Shown here in pieces: positions 788-35,455 of a DNA stretch of 41,089 bases (positions are counted from its first letter, which is position 1; each line of letters begins with the position of its first letter). The stretch is taken from UHGV virus genome UHGV-1357962; one strand, written 5' to 3'. A program made the translations under genes and the position numbers. Origin of the DNA: a virus. A model generated the notes under the pieces. The model worked only from the letters and a program-made list of their open reading frames with translations, made no database searches and was not told the origin of the DNA.

Positions 788-1051
788 ATGATAACCATCA
801 GCACAATCATCGGCGCAATCACTGCGCTAATCTTCGGCGCTGTCGGCCTTTGGTTTGGCGGAAAGTCTCGCGGCAAGTCAGAGCAGAAAGTCAAATCCGA
901 TATCCAGCAGGCGCAGCAGTCAGTAGCGCAAGAGAAAGCCCGCACAGAATCCGTTAAGGTGGCAAGCGATGTTAAAGATGAAGTTATGCGCAGCAATCCT
1001 GGCTCTATCCGCGACAAGCTGCGCGACGAATGGACCCGTCCAGGTAATTGA
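788..1051 (+). CDS. i-spanin (Rz-like): N-terminal TM anchor followed by a charged periplasmic coiled coil.
   Basis: N-terminal TM ITISTIIGAITALIFGAVGLWFGG followed by a charged helical region. RBS GGAAGG upstream. The Rz1-like ORF starts inside this gene in the +1 frame. Confidence 0.6.
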   Translation: MITISTIIGAITALIFGAVGLWFGGKSRGKSEQKVKSDIQQAQQSVAQEKARTESVKVASDVKDEVMRSNPGSIRDKLRDEWTRPGN

Positions 1052-1199
1052 TACCAGCTGCGACTGGATGAAACCAATCTGGCTTGACCGCACTGAAATC
1101 GACCACATGACCGACGGCACGCTGCGCCAGATTCTGACCCACAACGAAACGTGGAAGAAAAAGTGTAACGATGACAAAATGCCATCGCGGAAAGGTTGA
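969..1199 (+). CDS. o-spanin (Rz1-like) lipoprotein, overlapping the 3' part of the i-spanin gene in another frame.
   Basis: Signal peptide with lipobox-like ...LALSATSC. It starts within the Rz-like gene in a different frame and extends past it (overlapped Rz/Rz1 architecture). Confidence 0.5.
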   Translation: MLKMKLCAAILALSATSCATNGPVQVIDTSCDWMKPIWLDRTEIDHMTDGTLRQILTHNETWKKKCNDDKMPSRKG

Positions 1200-1210
1200 C
1201 ACGATAATCA

Positions 1211-1257
1211 GATTTGGTGATACTAACACAACAACGTTGCTCCCGTTGTGGTTAACC
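1211..1257. repeat. Direct repeat copy R1 (GATTTGGTGA-N19-CTCCCGTTGTGGTTAA) in the non-coding block.
   Basis: It matches R2 at 1579-1626 (GATTTGGTGA-N16-CTCTTGCCGTTGTGGTAAT). A third TTGGTGAAAA lies at 1440-1449. Confidence 0.5.
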
Positions 1258-1578
1258 AGCAAGACGGAGGTGGAAGCCCTCGCCGGAGACGTACCCGGAC
1301 GACAAGATGATGCAAACGTGAAAGGTCGCTAAAACTCGTTAGGCCGATGAGTTCAGATGGCAATAAAGAACTGACTACCGAGAAAGGTCGGGAGCCTGAA
1401 AGAATAAAGATGCAGCTCTTTCAGGGTGATCCTGCATAGTTGGTGAAAACTCGTGTTTGCGTGTTCACTCCAACCGCGCTGGCTGTGAGGTCGGTACACA
1501 ACAATCGGTCAACTTGGTTGACGCCGGACGCGTAACCGGCACACAACAGGTAAGAGCATTGAACCCGTAGACCTCGCG

Positions 1579-1626
1579 GATTTGGTGAAAGGTGCCGCGC
1601 AGTGCTCTTGCCGTTGTGGTAATGCC
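1579..1626. repeat. Direct repeat copy R2 of the GATTTGGTGA...CCGTTGTGGT element.
   Basis: See R1. The copies are ~365 bp apart. The ACACAACA 8-mer also recurs at 1226, 1496 and 1541. Confidence 0.5.
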
Positions 1627-1828
1627 AAATTGATTATTTGGATAGGGTTGCGTCCATTATTACGCCAGTTTCAGTTAATCGCGAAACTCCACAACACTTA
1701 ATATCCAGCATTATCGCAATCATATGTAGGGGTATGTATGGGTTACGGGGCTGGGTATTAAGAAAGCACGCTGGCAATGCTTAAACCAGCAAACACCAAA
1801 ACCACCACAAAAACTACCAGGAATAAAA

Positions 1829-2117: not shown

Positions 2118-3500
2118 ATGGCTAAGAAGCCCCACCTCAAGCTACACAATGACGGCAGCCTGTCGTACCGCGTGGATGCGTGGTCTAACCCCATATCCGG
2201 GCAGGGTATTCCTGGCATCGACAAAAGCCTCGGGCAGGTTCTGTCACCTGCATTTGCGCATCTGATGCATAACAATCAGCAGGTGCTGACGAATATTTAT
2301 CTGTCGGACTGGCTGGCGCGTAAAATCTGCGACCTTCCCGCAGAGGATGCCACTCGCAAGTTTATCGAAATCACCGGACTGGATGGTGAGGACAAAAAGC
2401 GCGTTGAATCCATGCTGGATGAGATTGGTCTGCGCGCATCCGTGCGCAAAGGCATTGCCTGGTCCCGCCTGTTCGGTGGCGCTGGTGTGCTGAAGGTTTA
2501 TGACGATTCTCGCCCGCCAGAATCACCACCATCAGAAACGGCGGCAATCATCGACCTTGTACCGCTAGACCGCTGGTCGTTAAGCGTTGATGAAATCGAC
2601 CTGGACCCTGAGTCACCGCATTATGGTCGGGCGCTGAATTATGTGGCTCGCAACGGTGTGACCTATCACCGTGACCGCATTGCGCCGTTCTATGGCTGCC
2701 CGGTCCCATACGATACCCAGATCGAACTACAGGGATGGGGTGGCTCTTATGTAGCGATGGCTTGGTCGGCTATTGCTGCATACAACGAGACATTACAGGA
2801 CGCGTCATTTCTGCTGAAAGAGTCAGGGGTTGGCATCCTTTCCGTGCCGAACCTGACAGCGGCGCAATCAATGGGGATGACGGCATCTCAGGCAGTAATG
2901 AACCGCGCGAACGCCTTTAATCAGGGTAAGTCAATCTACCGGGCGGCGGTTGTCGATAAGGAAGAGAAATTCGAATTTGTTAACCGCTCGCTCCAGGGCA
3001 TCCCAGACTTCGTTGACCGCTTTGCTACTGCTGTTGCTGGCGCGACGGGCTTATCTGAGTTGATGCTGTTCGGAAAATCTCCCGCAGGACTCAACGCCAG
3101 CCAGGAGGAAATCCTGTCGGTTTACTACGACAAGATTGCCGCGATTCAGGAAGGCGATCCGAGCGCGCTGGTGCAGTCATGCATTGATAACGTGAAGATG
3201 CAGACAGGTCTGGACTTCGACTGGAAATGGGCAGAACTTAGCGCGATGTCGCCTGACAAGAAAGCAACCTCAATGGCATCGGTGGCAACGGCAATTTCAA
3301 CGCTTGAGCAATCTGCGGCGCTTACTCCTAACGAGGTGCGCAACCTGGCTAACGACTCAGGTCTGTTCTCTCTGGAAGAATTGCCGGAAGATGAAGAAGA
3401 ACAGGACCCGTTAGGTCTTAACTCACTCGGTGGCGAAAATGGCACAAACGGAATTTCAGAAACAACTGGCAGCACTGAAGCCGGACAAGCGGAAGCGTAA
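2118..3500 (+). CDS. Portal protein (460 aa).
   Basis: The size and its position directly upstream of a MuF-like head morphogenesis gene and a protease/scaffold gene support a portal. Strong RBS. Confidence 0.7.
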   Translation: MAKKPHLKLHNDGSLSYRVDAWSNPISGQGIPGIDKSLGQVLSPAFAHLMHNNQQVLTNIYLSDWLARKICDLPAEDATRKFIEITGLDGEDKKRVESMLDEIGLRASVRKGIAWSRLFGGAGVLKVYDDSRPPESPPSETAAIIDLVPLDRWSLSVDEIDLDPESPHYGRALNYVARNGVTYHRDRIAPFYGCPVPYDTQIELQGWGGSYVAMAWSAIAAYNETLQDASFLLKESGVGILSVPNLTAAQSMGMTASQAVMNRANAFNQGKSIYRAAVVDKEEKFEFVNRSLQGIPDFVDRFATAVAGATGLSELMLFGKSPAGLNASQEEILSVYYDKIAAIQEGDPSALVQSCIDNVKMQTGLDFDWKWAELSAMSPDKKATSMASVATAISTLEQSAALTPNEVRNLANDSGLFSLEELPEDEEEQDPLGLNSLGGENGTNGISETTGSTEAGQAEA

Positions 3501-4282: not shown

Positions 4283-5554
4283 ATGAAAAAAGATTATCGC
4301 ATCGACAAGGGCGGTCGCATAACCTCAAAGATTGACGAAAACGGGTTCCTGCGCATTGATGGCGTGGTGGCGCATGTCGGCATTCTTGAATATATGGAAG
4401 ATGACGGCACGATTATCCGTGAATTTGTGCCAGAGGAGACGTTGTTTGATGAGGAATCGCTGAAGTCACTGGCTGGCGCACCGGTGACTTTGCAGCACCC
4501 TCCCGTGATGATCACCCCATCCAATTACAAGGAATACTCTCAGGGCAGCGTTAACGGGATGCCAAAGCGTGATGGTGACAATCTTGTCGCGTCAATGCTG
4601 GTAATTGGCAACGAGGCTTTACATGCGGTAGAATACGACGGTGTATGTGAGCTTTCTCCGGGTTATTCCGTTGACCTAGATGAAACGCCTGGTGAATGGC
4701 AGGGTCAGAAGTATGACCGTGTCCAGCGCAATCGGCGTTATAACCATCAGGCCATCGTGGATGCCGCGCGAGGTGGCTCAATCTGTTCACTGCGTTTTGA
4801 TGGCGCAAATGTGCCGAATAACGAGGAGAAATCAATGACTCAAATCAAACTGCCCGGCGGCGGCACTGTTGAAGTTGCAGATGCAGCTACGGCAGCGACC
4901 ATCAACGCGGCGCTGGCGAAGCAGGGCAAGCGCCTTGACTCCGCCACAGGTCAGCTCAAAAAGCTGGTCAAGGCCATCGCTCCAAAACTGAAGCTAGACG
5001 CTGACGACATCATTAAAGATGTCGACGACGAGAACAAAGAAGTGGTTGAAGTCGATGTTCCGGCGGTTGAGAACGCAGTAGCAAGCGTTTCCGAAGCGGT
5101 AGACACCCTTCAGGCTCAGCTTGATGAGCTGGCTGATGCGGTAAACGGCGACACCCCTGATTCCTTAATGGATGAAGAAGAACCTGATAAGGTTGATGAA
5201 GACACCGACACCGATCCGGAGCAGAAAACCGACTCCCTCAGCAAAATGCTGCGAATTATCGAGGATGCCAAAAAACTGAAACCGGGAATCAGCCATATGG
5301 ATGGCAAGCGCGTGAAAACCGCTCGCGAAATTCAGGTTGAAGCGCTCATTGCCGCAAAATCCGGCTTCAATGCTGATGGCAAGTCCGACGCCTATATCAG
5401 CGGTCGATTCGATGCCGCAGTGGATGGCCTGAAGAATCGCACCGATAGCCTGCGCACTCAGCGCCAGGGTCTGAATCTTGATGGTGTGTTCAACTCTCGC
5501 GAAGAGTCTGGGCAGGCCGCATACAACGCTAAATTCTACGCGGGGAAAGCATAA
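4283..5554 (+). CDS. Prohead protease/scaffold-like protein (DUF2213-like N-terminus with an acidic coiled-coil C-terminal half).
   Basis: The N-terminal ~190 aa resembles DUF2213 phage proteins. The C-terminal half is acidic and helical (DEEEPDKVDEDTDTD), which fits a scaffold. It lies between the MuF-like gene and the capsid gene. Confidence 0.55.
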   Translation: MKKDYRIDKGGRITSKIDENGFLRIDGVVAHVGILEYMEDDGTIIREFVPEETLFDEESLKSLAGAPVTLQHPPVMITPSNYKEYSQGSVNGMPKRDGDNLVASMLVIGNEALHAVEYDGVCELSPGYSVDLDETPGEWQGQKYDRVQRNRRYNHQAIVDAARGGSICSLRFDGANVPNNEEKSMTQIKLPGGGTVEVADAATAATINAALAKQGKRLDSATGQLKKLVKAIAPKLKLDADDIIKDVDDENKEVVEVDVPAVENAVASVSEAVDTLQAQLDELADAVNGDTPDSLMDEEEPDKVDEDTDTDPEQKTDSLSKMLRIIEDAKKLKPGISHMDGKRVKTAREIQVEALIAAKSGFNADGKSDAYISGRFDAAVDGLKNRTDSLRTQRQGLNLDGVFNSREESGQAAYNAKFYAGKA

Positions 5555-32155: not shown

Positions 32156-32191
32156 CCACGACTTTAATCTTTTGTTTTTGCTTCTCATCTC

Positions 32192-33379: not shown

Positions 33380-33868
33380 ATGGCTCAATTCCCACCAGGC
33401 AACCGGTTCTGGGAAGCGAGAAGCAGCGCCGGTGCAAAGCCAAAATTTGCAACCCCTGAGCAACTGGAGAAATCTTGCCGGGAGTATTTCCAGTGGGTTG
33501 AGGATAACCCGCTGTGGGAAATGAAGGCATTCGCGTTTCAGGGCGTAGTTACACAGGAGCCTGTTGCTAAGATGCGAGCCATGACAATAGGCGGGCTTTG
33601 CATATTCCTTGGTATTACTCATCAGACGTGGACTCAGTACAGAAAGAGAGACGATTTATCTGAAGTCACGGCATGGGCAGAATCAGTAATAAGAGACCAG
33701 AAGTTTGGTGGCGCGGCTGCCGACCTCCTGAATGCCAACATCATCGCTCGCGACCTGGGACTGAAAGATAACTCCGAGGTTGACCATAAGTCCAGCGACG
33801 GCTCAATGTCTCCTCAAGGCTCAGATGTGACAGACGCACTTAAACGCAAATATGGGAAGGGTGAATGA
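33380..33868 (+). CDS. Terminase small subunit (162 aa).
   Basis: The N-terminus ...[39 protein letters not shown]... matches the conserved TerS (Terminase_2-type) opening. Confidence 0.7.
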
Positions 33869-34071
33869 TGAGCGATTACAAATCTCGTGCTGACGAAGTG
33901 CTTCTTTCGCGTGGAGCGCATAACCATGAAGCGTGGCTGAAAGAGCAAGTGGCTGAGGCCATGGATAAGGCTGAACGAGGCGAGGCTGTTTATTACTCAG
34001 CGGAAGATGCTGAGGAAATTATGAATAATAGAAAAGCTGAAATCGCAGCAAAGAATGAAGCCAAAGAGTAA
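33865..34071 (+). CDS. Hypothetical 68-aa acidic helical protein between terS and terL.
   Basis: ATGATG overlap with the terS stop. GGGAAGGG RBS. Confidence 0.4.
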
Positions 34072-35455
34072 ACTTTCCGCCGACGAAATCGCCACACTGC
34101 GATGCGACCTCCTGGAGTTTTCCAAATACATGTTCAAGGCCCGAAAGGGCTTTGACTTTGTGGAGAACTGGCATCACGCGAAAATCTGTGAGGCACTGGA
34201 GCGATGCTTTATCGGCCAGTACAAGCGCCTGATTATCAATATCCCCCCTCGATACTCAAAGACCGAGCTTGCCGTTGTCAACTTCATGGCCTGGGCTATC
34301 GGGAACTACCCGGATTGCGAATTTATCCACGCCAGCTACTCCAAGCGACTTGCTGCCAATAATACCTACCAGGCCCGCGCTATCGCCATGTCAGAGGAAT
34401 ATCATGCTGTGTTTGGTGATATCGGCATGATGGCGGATGCCAAGGCCAAGGATGAATGGCGCACGAAAACAGGCGGCTGCGTCTATGCCACTGGCTCTGA
34501 AGGCACAATCACAGGGTACGGTGCGGGCAGGCTGCGTGAAGGATTCGGCGGCGCAATCATAATTGACGATCCGCATAAGGCAAGCGAGGCTAATTCTGAC
34601 ACCATGCGCCAGAATGTCATTGACTGGTTCCAGACCACGATGGAGTCGCGTCTGAACAGCCCTGACACGCCAATTATCGTTATTATGCAGCGGCTACACG
34701 AGGAAGACCTTGCAGGATGGCTACAGGCTGGCGGCAATGGCGAGGAATGGCATGTACTTAGTATTCCTGCCATAAACCCTGATGACACCGCTTTGTGGCC
34801 CTTTAAGCACTCCCGAGAGAAGCTGGCAGAGATGGAGGCCAGTAATCCCTACGTGTTCGCAGGTCAGTACATGCAGCGCCCTGCACCAAAAGGCGGCGGC
34901 CTGTTCAAAGACAGCTGGTGGCAGTGGTACGACAACAGCTTTGTACACCCGGAGTGGGATTATCGCGTTATATACGCAGATACCGCGCTCAAAACAAAAG
35001 AGCACAACGACTGGTCTGTATTCCAGTGCTGGGGATTTAAAAACGGACACGCCTATCTCCTGGACCAGATTCGTGGTAAATGGGAAGCGCCAGAACTCAT
35101 CAAACAGGCTCGCGCATTCTGGGATTTGCACAAATCACCCATTAACCGTGGCGTTGTTCGTGGAATGAAGATTGAGGATAAGGCTAGTGGAACCGGGCTG
35201 ATTCAGACCCTGAAGATGGAAGGCGTTCCGGTAATCCCGATTCAGCGATCGGTTGATAAATTCACTCGCGCTCTGGATGTCCTTCCACAGATTGAAGCTG
35301 GGCTGGTTCACCTGCCGAAGGATGCTCCGTGGATGCCCGCATACATCGGTGAGTTTTCTGTATTCCCTAACGGGAAGCACGATGACCAGGTTGACCCTAC
35401 GCTAGACGCCATATCTGACAACCTTGTCACCGGCTACAACCTTTCCGCCTGGTAA
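34055..35455 (+). CDS. Terminase large subunit (466 aa).
   Basis: An N-terminal ATPase region (...HHAKICEALERCF...RLIINIPPRYSKTEL...) and a C-terminal nuclease domain with acidic residues (IYADTAL...DWSVFQ...). Confidence 0.8.
   Translation: MKPKSKLSADEIATLRCDLLEFSKYMFKARKGFDFVENWHHAKICEALERCFIGQYKRLIINIPPRYSKTELAVVNFMAWAIGNYPDCEFIHASYSKRLAANNTYQARAIAMSEEYHAVFGDIGMMADAKAKDEWRTKTGGCVYATGSEGTITGYGAGRLREGFGGAIIIDDPHKASEANSDTMRQNVIDWFQTTMESRLNSPDTPIIVIMQRLHEEDLAGWLQAGGNGEEWHVLSIPAINPDDTALWPFKHSREKLAEMEASNPYVFAGQYMQRPAPKGGGLFKDSWWQWYDNSFVHPEWDYRVIYADTALKTKEHNDWSVFQCWGFKNGHAYLLDQIRGKWEAPELIKQARAFWDLHKSPINRGVVRGMKIEDKASGTGLIQTLKMEGVPVIPIQRSVDKFTRALDVLPQIEAGLVHLPKDAPWMPAYIGEFSVFPNGKHDDQVDPTLDAISDNLVTGYNLSAW

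Follow-up and report, generated by a model that had tools for sequence, protein, structure and literature searches.

The ORF-free block at positions 1200–1828 of the virus genome UHGV-1357962 (analysed here as a window of 41,089 nt, one strand) is probably the non-coding, structured 5′ part of a moron-type accessory unit that was assembled from mobile phage RNA modules. The block is a mosaic of pieces homologous to DNA of other phages, its promoter and terminator follow a consensus shared with relatives, its structures are conserved and favour one strand, and it lacks the features of a replication origin or packaging site. Covariation, an asymmetry in G.U changes and folding energies support the predicted plus-strand RNA structure, and from these observations we infer that the block is transcribed and processed and that its RNA may act in trans.

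Layout of the proposed accessory unit

The unit runs from a promoter through small hairpins and modules 1, 2 and 3 to a cargo gene and a shared terminator, with the following features:

1196–1224, + strand: predicted sigma70-type promoter (TTGACA-17 nt-GATACT), overlapping the spanin stop codon
1226–1252, + strand: minimal "empty" scaffold whose arms (CACAAC...GUUGUGG) enclose a short loop, at the predicted RNA 5′ end
1251–1502, + strand: 252-bp insertion of borrowed non-coding modules relative to phage BUCT618, which joins 1250 to 1503
1508–1540, + strand: adjacent hairpins GTCAAC-ttg-GTTGAC and GCCGG-acgcgtaa-CCGGC (MFE −15.5 kcal/mol, z −2.15)
1541–1620, + strand: module 1 scaffold hairpin, whose nearly invariant 19-bp stem encloses a hypervariable interior
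1613–1696, + strand: module 2 "type a", predicted to be cloverleaf-like with three hairpins (MFE −21.7 kcal/mol, z −1.98)
1697–1762, + strand: module 3, a 66-nt long hairpin (13 + 3 + 9 bp, GGGG loop) predicted by folding and alifold
1764–1791, + strand: conserved tail AAGCACGCUGGCAAUGCUUAAACCAGC, which includes a small hairpin (GCUGG/CCAGC)
1829–2026, + strand: 65-aa cargo ORF of PHROG 3909 (E 5e-21)
2041–2066, + strand: intrinsic terminator ACCCGC-tccg-GCGGGT followed by TTTTTT, as read from the sequence

The promoter matches 10 of 12 consensus positions in a promoter scan in which promoter-like sites were no commoner than in shuffled sequences (2 vs 1.9), and it places the predicted transcription start at about 1231, inside the 8-mer ACACAACA. 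In the relatives BUCT618, L021/L202 and L204, the −35 element TTGACA is unchanged, the −10 element reads GATACT or AATACT, and the spacing of 17 nt is kept although the spacer sequence differs. Related units in siphophages likewise have their own promoter (TTGACA-17-TAGATT) and terminator, and lie on the strand opposite to the flanking tail genes. The empty scaffold at the predicted RNA 5′ end is conserved in BUCT618, L021 and L204, and its predicted fold is weak (−5.9 kcal/mol, z −0.36).

At the other end of the unit, the cargo ORF is preceded by an AGGA ribosome-binding site and by the CA-rich tract that the earlier note had remarked on upstream of the gene at 1829, which we see as a linker. 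The ORF has no Pfam match; its homologues form twelve protein clusters with identities of 72–98%. The cargo slot itself is variable. Three relatives have a tRNA there and one has a Tad2-like anti-defence gene, where this phage carries the PHROG 3909 ORF; across phages with the same gene order, the cargo is tRNA-Ile, tRNA-Asn, the Tad2-like gene or PHROG 3909. The terminator is conserved at 89–94% in BUCT618, L202, L203 and L204 irrespective of the cargo, and it aligns to the terminator part of the rsmX model; the terminator scan listed its hairpin for the minus strand only. The unit has the features of a non-coding phage tRNA-operon or moron unit, namely a predicted promoter (1196–1224) and a terminator of its own, sense orientation and an accessory slot that varies between relatives.

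In the reading that we favour, this accessory unit would have entered the genome between the genes for lysis and the gene for the portal, and the promoter at the end of the spanin gene would drive a plus-strand RNA that passes the folded modules and then the cargo gene (1829–2026) to reach the terminator at about 2041–2066. The modules would be drawn from a pool of mobile non-coding RNA elements that occupy tRNA-gene or moron slots in enterobacterial phages of unrelated families. Such slots include the late leader of lambda past tR′, the leader of the P1 ban operon and the tRNA units that stand alone in Skate/Jersey-like siphophages. The stem of module 1 clamps an insert that varies from phage to phage, and module 3, which normally lies immediately upstream of a tRNA, would here precede a protein-coding cargo that has replaced it. 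Host RNases of the tRNA/rRNA-processing type may then cut the primary transcript into stable hairpin RNAs with paired ends, and the released hairpins would have an accessory or anti-defence role towards the host, not that of cis-acting DNA sites.

RNA modules and their conservation

Module 1 consists of a 5′ arm (CACAAC-A-GG-U-AAGAGCA-UUG, 1542–1561) and a 3′ arm (CAG-UGCUCUU-G-CC-GUUGUG, 1600–1618) that flank a replaceable insert (1562–1599). Its predicted fold is considerably more stable on the plus strand (−37.2 kcal/mol, z −4.83) than on the minus strand (−28.0 kcal/mol). We compared 97 distinct arm pairs from 140 instances and found a bulged A and a U.U mismatch in the stem conserved across the 97 arm variants; after a genome scan, the instances numbered at least 183. 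The paired fraction in this arm set, which was partly chosen by a sequence pattern and a pairing filter, is 0.924, compared with 0.894 ± 0.0035 after column shuffles and 0.35–0.64 with slid partners. The distal pair alternates between G-C, C-G and U-A, G.U-type changes in the stem far outnumber A.C-type changes, and compensations of several pairs occur in L026, L015 and L204. Since most stem positions are invariant, the covariation is confined to few columns.

The interior of module 1 is in turn hypervariable, with at least 59 unrelated types. The insert in the window is of a lambdoid-prophage type and is 94% identical to those of HK629, HK75 and E. coli prophages; 10 of the 59 types contain a hairpin resembling a tRNA T-arm, which we regard as enriched in inserts. 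Phage lambda carries module 1 at 44787–44862, immediately 3′ of tR′, and the P1 ban leader contains it as well, unannotated in both cases. Among the 183 instances, 79 lie on the same strand as nearby tRNAs and 3 on the opposite strand, and in some tRNA arrays module 1 is found within 1–5 nt of the tRNAs, as expected of a member of such an array. If lambda-sized contaminant contigs are set aside, module 1 is confined to Enterobacterales. It was not found in the late-leader slot of the E. coli K-12 prophage DLP12 (nmpC region), which we take to be the site of the sRNA IpeX.

The closing stem of module 2 is formed by GUUGUGG, which is shared with the 3′ arm of module 1, and CCACAAC. At least six alternatives, unrelated to one another, take the place of module 2 in other phages, and some of them include a tRNA T-arm. 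Compensatory changes convert GCGU/ACGC to GCAU/AUGC and UUUC/GAAA to UCUC/GAGA, and in L017 a G-C pair of the closing stem is replaced by U-A. Because the RNAalifold consensus differs inside the closing stem, only this stem and the individual hairpins are supported.

Module 3 is the most widely conserved piece, being 97–99% identical in many siphophages of Salmonella, Escherichia and Shigella. Its predicted fold (−23.7 kcal/mol, z −4.74; −15.3 kcal/mol on the minus strand) has an alifold consensus of −32.7 kcal/mol, one pair alternates between U-A (17), C-G (8) and U.G (3), and G.U pairs at several positions show no variation. The adjoining tail AAGCACGCUGGCAAUGCUUAAACCAGC served as the exact anchor with which 30 IMG/VR loci were collected. 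A tRNA starts 3–8 nt past this tail in 23 of 35 units, where we found tRNA-Ile(UAU), Met/Ile2(CAU), Ile(AAU), Asn(GUU) or Ser(GCU) together with Arg(UCU). The remaining 12 units have no tRNA there and retain modules 1–3 intact; among them, S192 has neither a tRNA nor an ORF and the terminator follows directly, which indicates that the modules are more than a tRNA leader.

These results support the structured non-coding RNA that the earlier note had offered as one option. Two modules reach z-scores of −4.8 and −4.7 and fold about 9 kcal/mol better on the plus than on the minus strand, their stems undergo compensatory and G.U-type changes across phages, and the homologous units carry their own promoter and terminator and adjoin tRNA genes. 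Folding of the entire 629-nt block proved uninformative, being marginally better than shuffles on both strands (z about −2.1), and the pieces at 1226–1253, 1380–1445 and 1762–1795 fold no better than shuffles.

The covariance-model search proposed in the earlier note assigned the block to no known family: Rfam 15 gave no match in the whole window at gathering score, nothing except a terminator look-alike at 900–2300 at E ≤ 1, and no family for the homologous modules in 26 other loci. Weak sub-threshold tmRNA and tRNA-Sec-like Rfam matches adjoin the modules and do not overlap them. With its default settings, ARAGORN reported no tRNA for the window, and RF00005 had no match at E ≤ 1; a 91-nt "tRNA-Lys" (1576–1666) reported under relaxed settings is implausible because its stems are mismatched. 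Several other resemblances were discarded. The similarity to RNase P RNA (GGUGAAAGGUGC / CAGGUAAG) is a chance match, since 52 of 500 shuffles score as well; by inspection, the ends CACAAC/GTTGTG depart from the RYYYAAC/GTTRRRY of integron attC sites and the inserts are no simple imperfect palindromes; the supposed hammerhead core reads CCGAUGA where CUGAUGA is required and has no Rfam match; and eukaryote-like splice-site resemblances were dismissed by inspection and for want of an Rfam match. A full-text literature search with arm sequences, insert sequences and the topic found no description of module 1, and none of the phage records that we inspected annotates the conserved non-tRNA RNA modules.

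Mosaic origin and alternative explanations

Pieces of the block are 87–100% identical to non-coding DNA of phages whose flanking genes are unrelated, including BUCT618-like, Skate/Jersey-like and lambdoid phages, P1, PAT1 and the Pantoea phage PSKM, and the matching pieces adjoin tRNA genes in Skate, sal3, BUCT618, P1 and PSKM. The insertion relative to BUCT618 consists of such pieces. Positions 1264–1298 match the leader of the P1 ban operon, where several records of the P1 type agree at 35 of 35 nt and the P1 reference at 34 of 35, and this match ends 5 bp upstream of tRNA-Asn. The piece at 1310–1386 resembles (87%) the spacer between tRNA-Asn and tRNA-Ser of PSKM and is also present in the relative L203, which carries window positions 788–1386. 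The piece at 1372–1503 resembles (87%) a PAT1 module, ends in CACAACA and has a counterpart in PAT1 that is likewise followed by module 1. Further downstream, the hairpin pair at 1508–1540 has an ensemble frequency of 0.96; a CCGG-N8-CCGG hairpin followed by CACAAC is found upstream of module 1 in most phages, and a second copy of this small-hairpin element lies at 1281–1305, within the P1-like piece. As to the comparison of the same locus in related phages that the earlier note had proposed, a non-coding modular block is always present there in relatives with the same gene order, but its modules and cargo are exchanged.

On re-reading the sequence, we located every repeat, hairpin and ACACAACA motif where the earlier note had placed it: the 8-mer recurs at 1226, 1496 and 1541, and the hairpins GTCAAC-ttg-GTTGAC (1508–1522), GCCGG-N8-CCGGC (1523–1540) and CCAAAT-tgatt-ATTTGG (1624–1640) are exact. 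Across the whole window, ACACAACA occurs 5 times against 1.67 expected, a count reached in none of 100 shuffles. The long direct repeat has two halves, GATTTGGTGA with copies at 1211 and 1579 and CCGTTGTGGT with copies at 1243 and 1611; in each case the copies are 368 nt apart, so that they form a single split repeat in register, and TTGGTGA has a third copy at 1440. Taken alone, each 10-mer of the repeat is within chance for 41 kb at one mismatch. Copy 1 of GATTTGGTGA lies within the promoter spacer and reads GATTGGGTGA or GATTGAGCAA in relatives, and copy 2 falls inside the replaceable insert; because it is unconserved in both places, the GATTTGGTGA half is probably a coincidence. CCGTTGTGGT is, together with CACAACA, a genuine recurring part of a conserved stem. 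The block was also rightly described as free of ORFs, its longest ORFs being at most 53 aa and disrupted in the closest relatives; we rejected small-protein coding, as these ORFs are interrupted wherever inserts are swapped.

The earlier note had also considered the block a candidate pac site or replication origin, that is, a cis-acting DNA site, which would suit an ORF-free region with repeats and hairpins in a window where no origin has been located elsewhere. We find this extremely unlikely, as iterons, an AT-rich segment and a skew switch are all absent. No 12–13-mer has three or more copies at ≤1 mismatch and only one 11-mer (ATTTGGTGAAA) does; the block has a GC content of 0.483 (whole window, 0.503), with 0.35 in its lowest 60-mer, and AT-rich spots lie elsewhere (32161, 23451 and 40851). 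The sole DnaA-box-like site in the block (1247, minus strand, one mismatch) is one of 18 such sites scattered over the window, and the GC skew tracks gene orientation without a switch at the block. P22-type phages have their pac site inside the small-terminase gene, and here the P22-gp3-like TerS (PF16677) is encoded at 33380–33868 and TerL at 34055–35455; genes for DnaB-like, ParB-HTH, helicase, RecT and SSB proteins are found at 24–30 kb and 39 kb, away from the block. Moreover, the content of the block is exchanged piecemeal among close relatives with the same terminase, portal (93–98% identical) and gene order, which is unlike an essential cis site, and the modules also occur in lambda, P1 and siphophages, whose packaging and replication systems are unrelated. 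The block might instead be the decaying remnant of a phage tRNA cluster, kept by recent recombination only and functionless here, an unlikely explanation in our view. It would account for the observation that every piece has a counterpart beside tRNA genes elsewhere although neither ARAGORN nor Rfam detects a tRNA in the window, for junctions at the short shared motifs CACAAC(A) and GTTGTGG, which are possible crossover points, and for the very high identity between phages, which fits recent transfer. However, neutral DNA would lose the compensatory and wobble-compatible stem changes with their strand bias, the bulged A and the U.U mismatch persist in every arm variant, tRNA-less units such as S192 keep modules 1–3, and the lambdoid copies of module 1 are conserved despite never having tRNAs nearby.

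Two further explanations assign the block RNA a defined role. It could be a sponge (anti-sRNA) for host GcvB that de-represses amino-acid and peptide uptake during infection, as does AgvB, a prophage sRNA from the pR′ moron slot: CACAACA is the published consensus that the R1 seed of GcvB targets, and AgvB functions through this motif (PMC4104026). This motif occurs three times in the block, more often than in shuffles, and is conserved at module boundaries in all phages, module 1 has the enterobacterial range described above, and the duplexes predicted with R1 of E. coli GcvB near 1210 and near 1515 have energies down to −26 kcal/mol when intramolecular structure is ignored, in the top 1.4% of window 40-mers. 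These energies are nevertheless unexceptional against a background minimum of −35.6 kcal/mol, most CACAAC copies are likely to be poorly accessible because they pair with GUUGUG in stable predicted stems, CACAACA may exist merely as one strand of a stem, and the block has neither an AgvB-like terminator domain of about 42 nt nor any plus-strand terminator within 1200–1828; we consider a GcvB sponge very unlikely. The module 1 stem could also serve the processing or antitermination of a long untranslated transcript, either as a stalk of the RNase III type from which the insert is released or as a site like boxA where NusB/NusE load and guard the non-coding operon from Rho; this seems quite unlikely. 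The commonest 3′ arm, CAG-UGCUCUUU-CCGUU, shares its 8-nt core with the rrnB leader boxA, CAC-UGCUCUUU-AACAA, and UGCUCUUU is the family consensus of module 1 (47 of 97 arms). Module 1 is always located early in long non-coding units in sense orientation, and its stem of about 19 bp around a variable RNA resembles rRNA processing stalks, in which the flanks of the released RNA form a long stem. NusB/E bind boxA in single-stranded form, but the core is here the 3′ strand of a predicted −37 kcal/mol stem; positions 9–13 mismatch, the window copy reads UGCUCUUG, and an 8-mer match noticed post hoc, when many motifs had been considered, is weak evidence. CRISPR arrays and other long RNAs that are not translated require boxA against Rho (PMC7665894). 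In lambda, Q already antiterminates late transcription, and RNase III cleavage is unpredictable from sequence.

Known systems and biological meaning

For the block as the probable 5′ part of an accessory unit, phage tRNA cassettes offer a close parallel. In P22-like and lambdoid phages such as phage L and Sf6, the late operon has tRNAs at its 5′ end (PMC8022706), and in P1 the leader of the ban operon contains trnA, trnT and trnI (record NC_005856). Such cassettes, like the block, are untranslated stretches in a moron slot, in sense orientation and with a terminator at the end; their tRNA-flanking DNA is directly homologous to pieces of the block, and close relatives hold tRNA-Ile or tRNA-Asn at the position of its cargo. 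Unlike them, the window contains no tRNA and the conserved part consists of non-tRNA RNA modules. AgvB and AsxR of EHEC lambdoid prophages are phage-borne non-coding RNAs of the pR′ moron slot (Tree et al, 2014; PMC4104026). AgvB shares with the block the CACAACA motif and the joining of a variable to a conserved part; however, it is described as a primary transcript of 51–60 nt that varies at its 5′ end and is conserved in a 3′ terminator domain, whereas in the block the conserved part is a stem that closes off a variable interior, lacks its own terminator and is embedded in a unit of about 600 nt.

The comparison extends to other structured RNAs. The tRNA region of phage T4 encodes the small stable RNAs species 1 and 2 and RNA C/D, which, like the modules, are non-tRNA structured RNAs within a phage tRNA operon and, like them, are presumably released by tRNA-processing enzymes; we know of no scaffold with swappable inserts that is shared by the T4 RNAs across phage families. 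The rRNA leader resembles module 1 in the rrnB boxA core UGCUCUUU and in a long stem around a variable RNA, but in module 1 the boxA-like core is base-paired, and the module lacks both the 3′ half of boxA and a boxB/boxC context. Bacterial Y RNAs of the YrlA type combine a protein-binding stem with a tRNA-like module. Module 1 likewise has a conserved bulged stem that closes a variable domain, with T-arm-like hairpins among its inserts, but it has no Rfam Y-RNA match and its stem sequence is unlike the Ro-binding helix. To our knowledge, Ro is absent from many hosts, including E. coli K-12.

It is possible, and we suggest it tentatively, that module 1 and its companions represent an undescribed class of phage small RNAs, freed by host tRNA-processing enzymes and used for takeover or counter-defence. 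Such RNAs may, for example, serve as tRNA-mimic decoys or as sponges for host RNAs or proteins, with the insert evolving in an arms race. The unannotated copies in lambda and the P1 ban leader, the 59 or more unrelated insert types, the slot shared with tRNAs and a Tad2-like gene, and the enrichment of T-arm-like hairpins in the inserts would all fit such a class. With regard to the accessory unit itself, the very high nucleotide identity between phages could also reflect recent transfer rather than selection, and since the window lacks a tRNA, the modules could be relics in this particular phage.

If the modules are functional, the well-studied phages lambda and P1 carry a conserved structured RNA that has gone unannotated, and RNA occupies slots otherwise used for tRNAs, toxins and anti-defence genes. 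By fitting exchangeable payloads into a fixed scaffold, phages would have a new route to small-RNA diversity, and the modules would serve as a marker of accessory and anti-defence islands in phage genomes. For annotation, the result indicates that "ORF-free gaps" of 0.5–1.5 kb in many enterobacterial phages are homologous arrays of RNA modules rather than origins or packaging sites.

Layout of the block and its recurring grammar

The non-coding block at window 1200–1828 lies between lysis genes and a short reading frame:

788–1051 and 969–1199, + strand: overlapping spanin genes, left flank
1829–2026, + strand: 65-aa ORF, right flank
3' of the 65-aa ORF: a terminator, then the DUF1073 portal gene (2118–3500)

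As the earlier note had observed, the block is free of ORFs (the longest inside it is at most 53 aa), its three perfect hairpins are exact in the sequence, and ACACAACA recurs at positions 1226, 1496 and 1541; the window contains five copies of this motif where 1.67 are expected, and 0 of 100 shuffles reach five. The direct repeats are real as well, with GATTTGGTGA at 1211 and 1579 and CCGTTGTGGT at 1243 and 1611 in a single 368-nt register, which confirms the observation in all listed features. In the proposed long repeat, the GATTTGGTGA half is not conserved in close relatives, copy 1 lying within the promoter spacer and copy 2 within the swappable insert. At window 1392–1440, CCTGAAAG/CTTTCAGG interleaves with ATGCAG/CTGCAT, and an H-type pseudoknot could form; the second helix reads AGGCAG/CTGCCT in the epsilon15-like phage PAT1, a compensatory change.

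Across a comparison set of the window, the phages BUCT618, Skate, sal3 and S192, one lambdoid prophage and 30 IMG/VR loci for which the conserved tail served as anchor, one grammar recurs, in the following order:

Promoter (consensus match): TTGACA-17-GATACT or AATACT in the BUCT618 group, TTGACA-17-TAGATT in siphophages
Hairpin CCGG-N8-CCGG: between promoter and module 1
Module 1 (window 1541–1620): arms CACAAC-A-GG-U-AAGAGCA-UUG and CAG-UGCUCUU-N-CC-GUUGUG enclosing an insert
Module 2 (window 1613–1696): at least six unrelated alternative types, 'type a' in the window
Motif CCACAACAC: between modules 2 and 3
Module 3 (window 1697–1762): 66-nt hairpin, then the tail AAGCACGCUGGCAAUGCUUAAACCAGC
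Cargo, then terminator: 3' end of the unit

The cargo tRNAs are Ile(UAU), Met/Ile2(CAU), Ile(AAU), Asn(GUU) or Ser+Arg; a tRNA is absent in 12 of 35 sequences, and in S192 the terminator directly follows modules 1–3. The siphophage unit is encoded on the strand opposite to the neighbouring tail genes and is therefore an independent transcription unit. The tRNAs 3' of module 3 in BUCT618 (L001 3056–3132), sal3 (L002 3278–3354) and Skate (L003 3340–3416) have near-identical bodies and differ in the acceptor stem alone, with anticodons TAT, CAT or AAT that switch at position 34 within one scaffold. An alternative form of module 2 resembles a 92-nt class-II-like tRNA (Skate, L003 ~3144–3235; also loci L020, L026, L030 and L038), combining the 7-bp acceptor stem GGCGACA/TGTCGCC with the T-arm CAGGTTCGATTCCTG, but it is called by neither ARAGORN nor Rfam.

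Predicted RNA structure and distribution of module 1

Module 1 folds at −37.2 kcal/mol on the + strand (z −4.83; 0 of 200 shuffles as good) and at −28.0 kcal/mol on the − strand, and module 3 at −23.7 (z −4.74) and −15.3 kcal/mol, respectively. Among 97 distinct arm pairs derived from 140 instances of module 1, 92.4% of cells are paired, compared with 89.4 ± 0.35% in column shuffles (maximum 90.4%) and 35–64% for slid partners. The distal pair varies between G-C (60), C-G (9), U-A (8) and U.G (7), several pairs change together in a compensatory way in individual loci (AAUGGCA/UGCCAUU in L026, AAGGGCA/UGCCCUU in L015, AAGAAUA/UAUUCUU in L204), and on the + strand G.U-compatible changes far outnumber those of A.C type. 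The stem also keeps a bulged A and a U.U mismatch. Module 3 has several invariant G.U pairs, and one of its pairs varies between U-A (17), C-G (8) and U.G (3). Single-sequence folding of module 2a closes three hairpins with GUUGUGG/CCACAAC (z −1.98); there are three compensatory changes, and RNAalifold favours a different interior. The evidence from covariation is moderate rather than strong, because most columns are invariant and part of the arm set was selected by sequence pattern and by a filter on pairing. Folding energies, covariation and homologous modules in other phages support the earlier proposal of a structured non-coding RNA.

A 15-base 5'-arm pattern matches at least 120 IMG/VR loci, and among the matches listed the 3' arm follows in 97 of 119 newly fetched loci. 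Two-arm matches occur in Enterobacterales (Serratia, Klebsiella, Pantoea, Kluyvera, Citrobacter, Rouxiella, Sodalis, Erwinia, Enterobacter, Brenneria, Raoultella and Kosakonia) and also in low-coverage contigs of unrelated taxa, three of which, at ~48.4–48.5 kb, have the size of the lambda genome. Contigs of this size in Pseudomonas and Shewanella assemblies are likely contaminants; one (L162) is lambda sequence, with the element at 4725–4810. In the lambda reference (NC_001416), module 1 lies at 44787–44862, directly downstream of tR' (the 6S RNA 3' end), overlapping the end of the hypothetical orf-64, the sole annotated feature there. Other lambdoid prophages also carry it directly 3' of a tR'-like terminator; in HK629 (L005 1933–2445), an inserted HNH endonuclease gene separates pR' from module 1. 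The P1 ban leader has at least three copies, and PAT1 and ECO1230-10 one each.

The inserts, 3–115 nt long with a median of 45, represent 59 unrelated types, 10 of which contain a tRNA T-arm-like hairpin (0.2 expected; maximum 3 in 200 shuffles). Within 1.5 kb of module 1, 79 tRNAs are on the same strand and three on the opposite one, and in a few arrays the distance is 1–5 nt; within 500 nt, a same-strand tRNA accompanies only 44 of the 183 instances.

Mosaic homology and exchange of cargo

The block is a mosaic that no single phage record covers as a whole. Its closest relative, Escherichia phage BUCT618, aligns from the lysis genes to 1250, lacks 1251–1502, matches 1503–1793 at 90%, carries tRNA-Ile(UAU) in place of 1794–2029 and resumes at the terminator and portal. 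Window 1264–1298 corresponds to the P1 ban-operon leader (35/35 nt in several P1-type records; 34/35 in the P1 reference, where the match stops 5 bp upstream of tRNA-Asn); 1310–1386 is similar to a spacer separating tRNA-Asn from tRNA-Ser in Pantoea phage PSKM, and 1372–1503 to non-coding DNA in PAT1. Window 1542–1625 is 94% identical to the Q/pR'–holin gene interval of HK629, HK75 and numerous prophages of E. coli. In Skate-, Saltre- and Jersey-like siphophages of Salmonella, Escherichia and Shigella, an intergenic unit that carries no annotation is ~95% identical over 1520–1792 and 97–99% over 1686–1791, and a tRNA gene begins 3–8 nt past its end. Downstream of a dicF-like region, the P1 ban leader (L007 1484–2040) has an extra module (...TTAGAAACTGACCA..AAATGCAAACGATGAT...) common to siphophage units (S192, L008 1330–1480), and the final element of the PAT1 unit is a dicF-like terminator hairpin. 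The shared pool of non-coding modules exceeds the three described here.

In five relatives with 93–98% identical portals, the order of lysis genes, non-coding block and portal is kept throughout, whereas modules are swapped, with junctions at CCGTTGTGG and just 5' of the terminator. The slot holds the following cargo:

BUCT618 and L203: tRNA-Ile
L202: tRNA-Asn
L204 (IMGVR_UViG_3300018411_000007), 2675–2929: Tad2-like anti-Thoeris gene (PF11195, E 4e-26)
Window, 1829–2026: PHROG 3909 ORF

Since the cargo differs in this way among relatives, the locus is an accessory or anti-defence hotspot, and the 65-aa ORF, at the position equivalent to the Tad2-like gene and the tRNAs, is a candidate anti-defence or accessory gene.

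Possible functions

The alternative proposal of a packaging site or replication origin is not supported. The small terminase (P22 gp3-like) and TerL are encoded at 33380–35455, a DnaB-like helicase, a ParB-HTH protein, a helicase and RecT at 24–30 kb, and SSB at 39 kb; the block shows no AT-richness, iteron array or skew switch, and its content varies among close relatives. The lowest-GC 60-mers of the window (GC 0.23–0.27), at 32161, 23451 and 40851, lie in or near early and replication regions; an origin is better sought at these spots than at 1200–1828.

For the RNA itself there are leads, none established. The block RNA might bind GcvB as a sponge through CACAACA. This sequence is the consensus that the GcvB R1 seed targets, and the prophage anti-sRNA AgvB, found in the same slot, acts through it (PMC4104026). 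Duplexes predicted with GcvB R1 fall within the top 1.4% for the window, but most copies of the motif are base-paired in the predicted fold. The 3' arm of module 1 might instead act as boxA, which long untranslated RNAs need against Rho (PMC7665894): UGCUCUUU in the commonest 3' arm matches the core of rrnB boxA exactly, although this sequence is paired in the stem and the window copy reads UGCUCUUG. Alternatively, the stem may serve as a processing stalk or protein-binding site through which a variable payload is released and protected.

The core scaffold element is present in lambda and P1 yet, to the extent of Rfam 15 and the literature searched, undescribed: no Rfam 15 family matches module 1, and full-text literature searches found no description of its sequences. 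An arms-race role would be consistent with the T-arm enrichment, the hypervariable inserts and the anti-defence neighbours. The description that fits the block best is the modular, non-coding RNA portion of a moron-type unit, a kind of unit in which phage tRNAs are usually carried.
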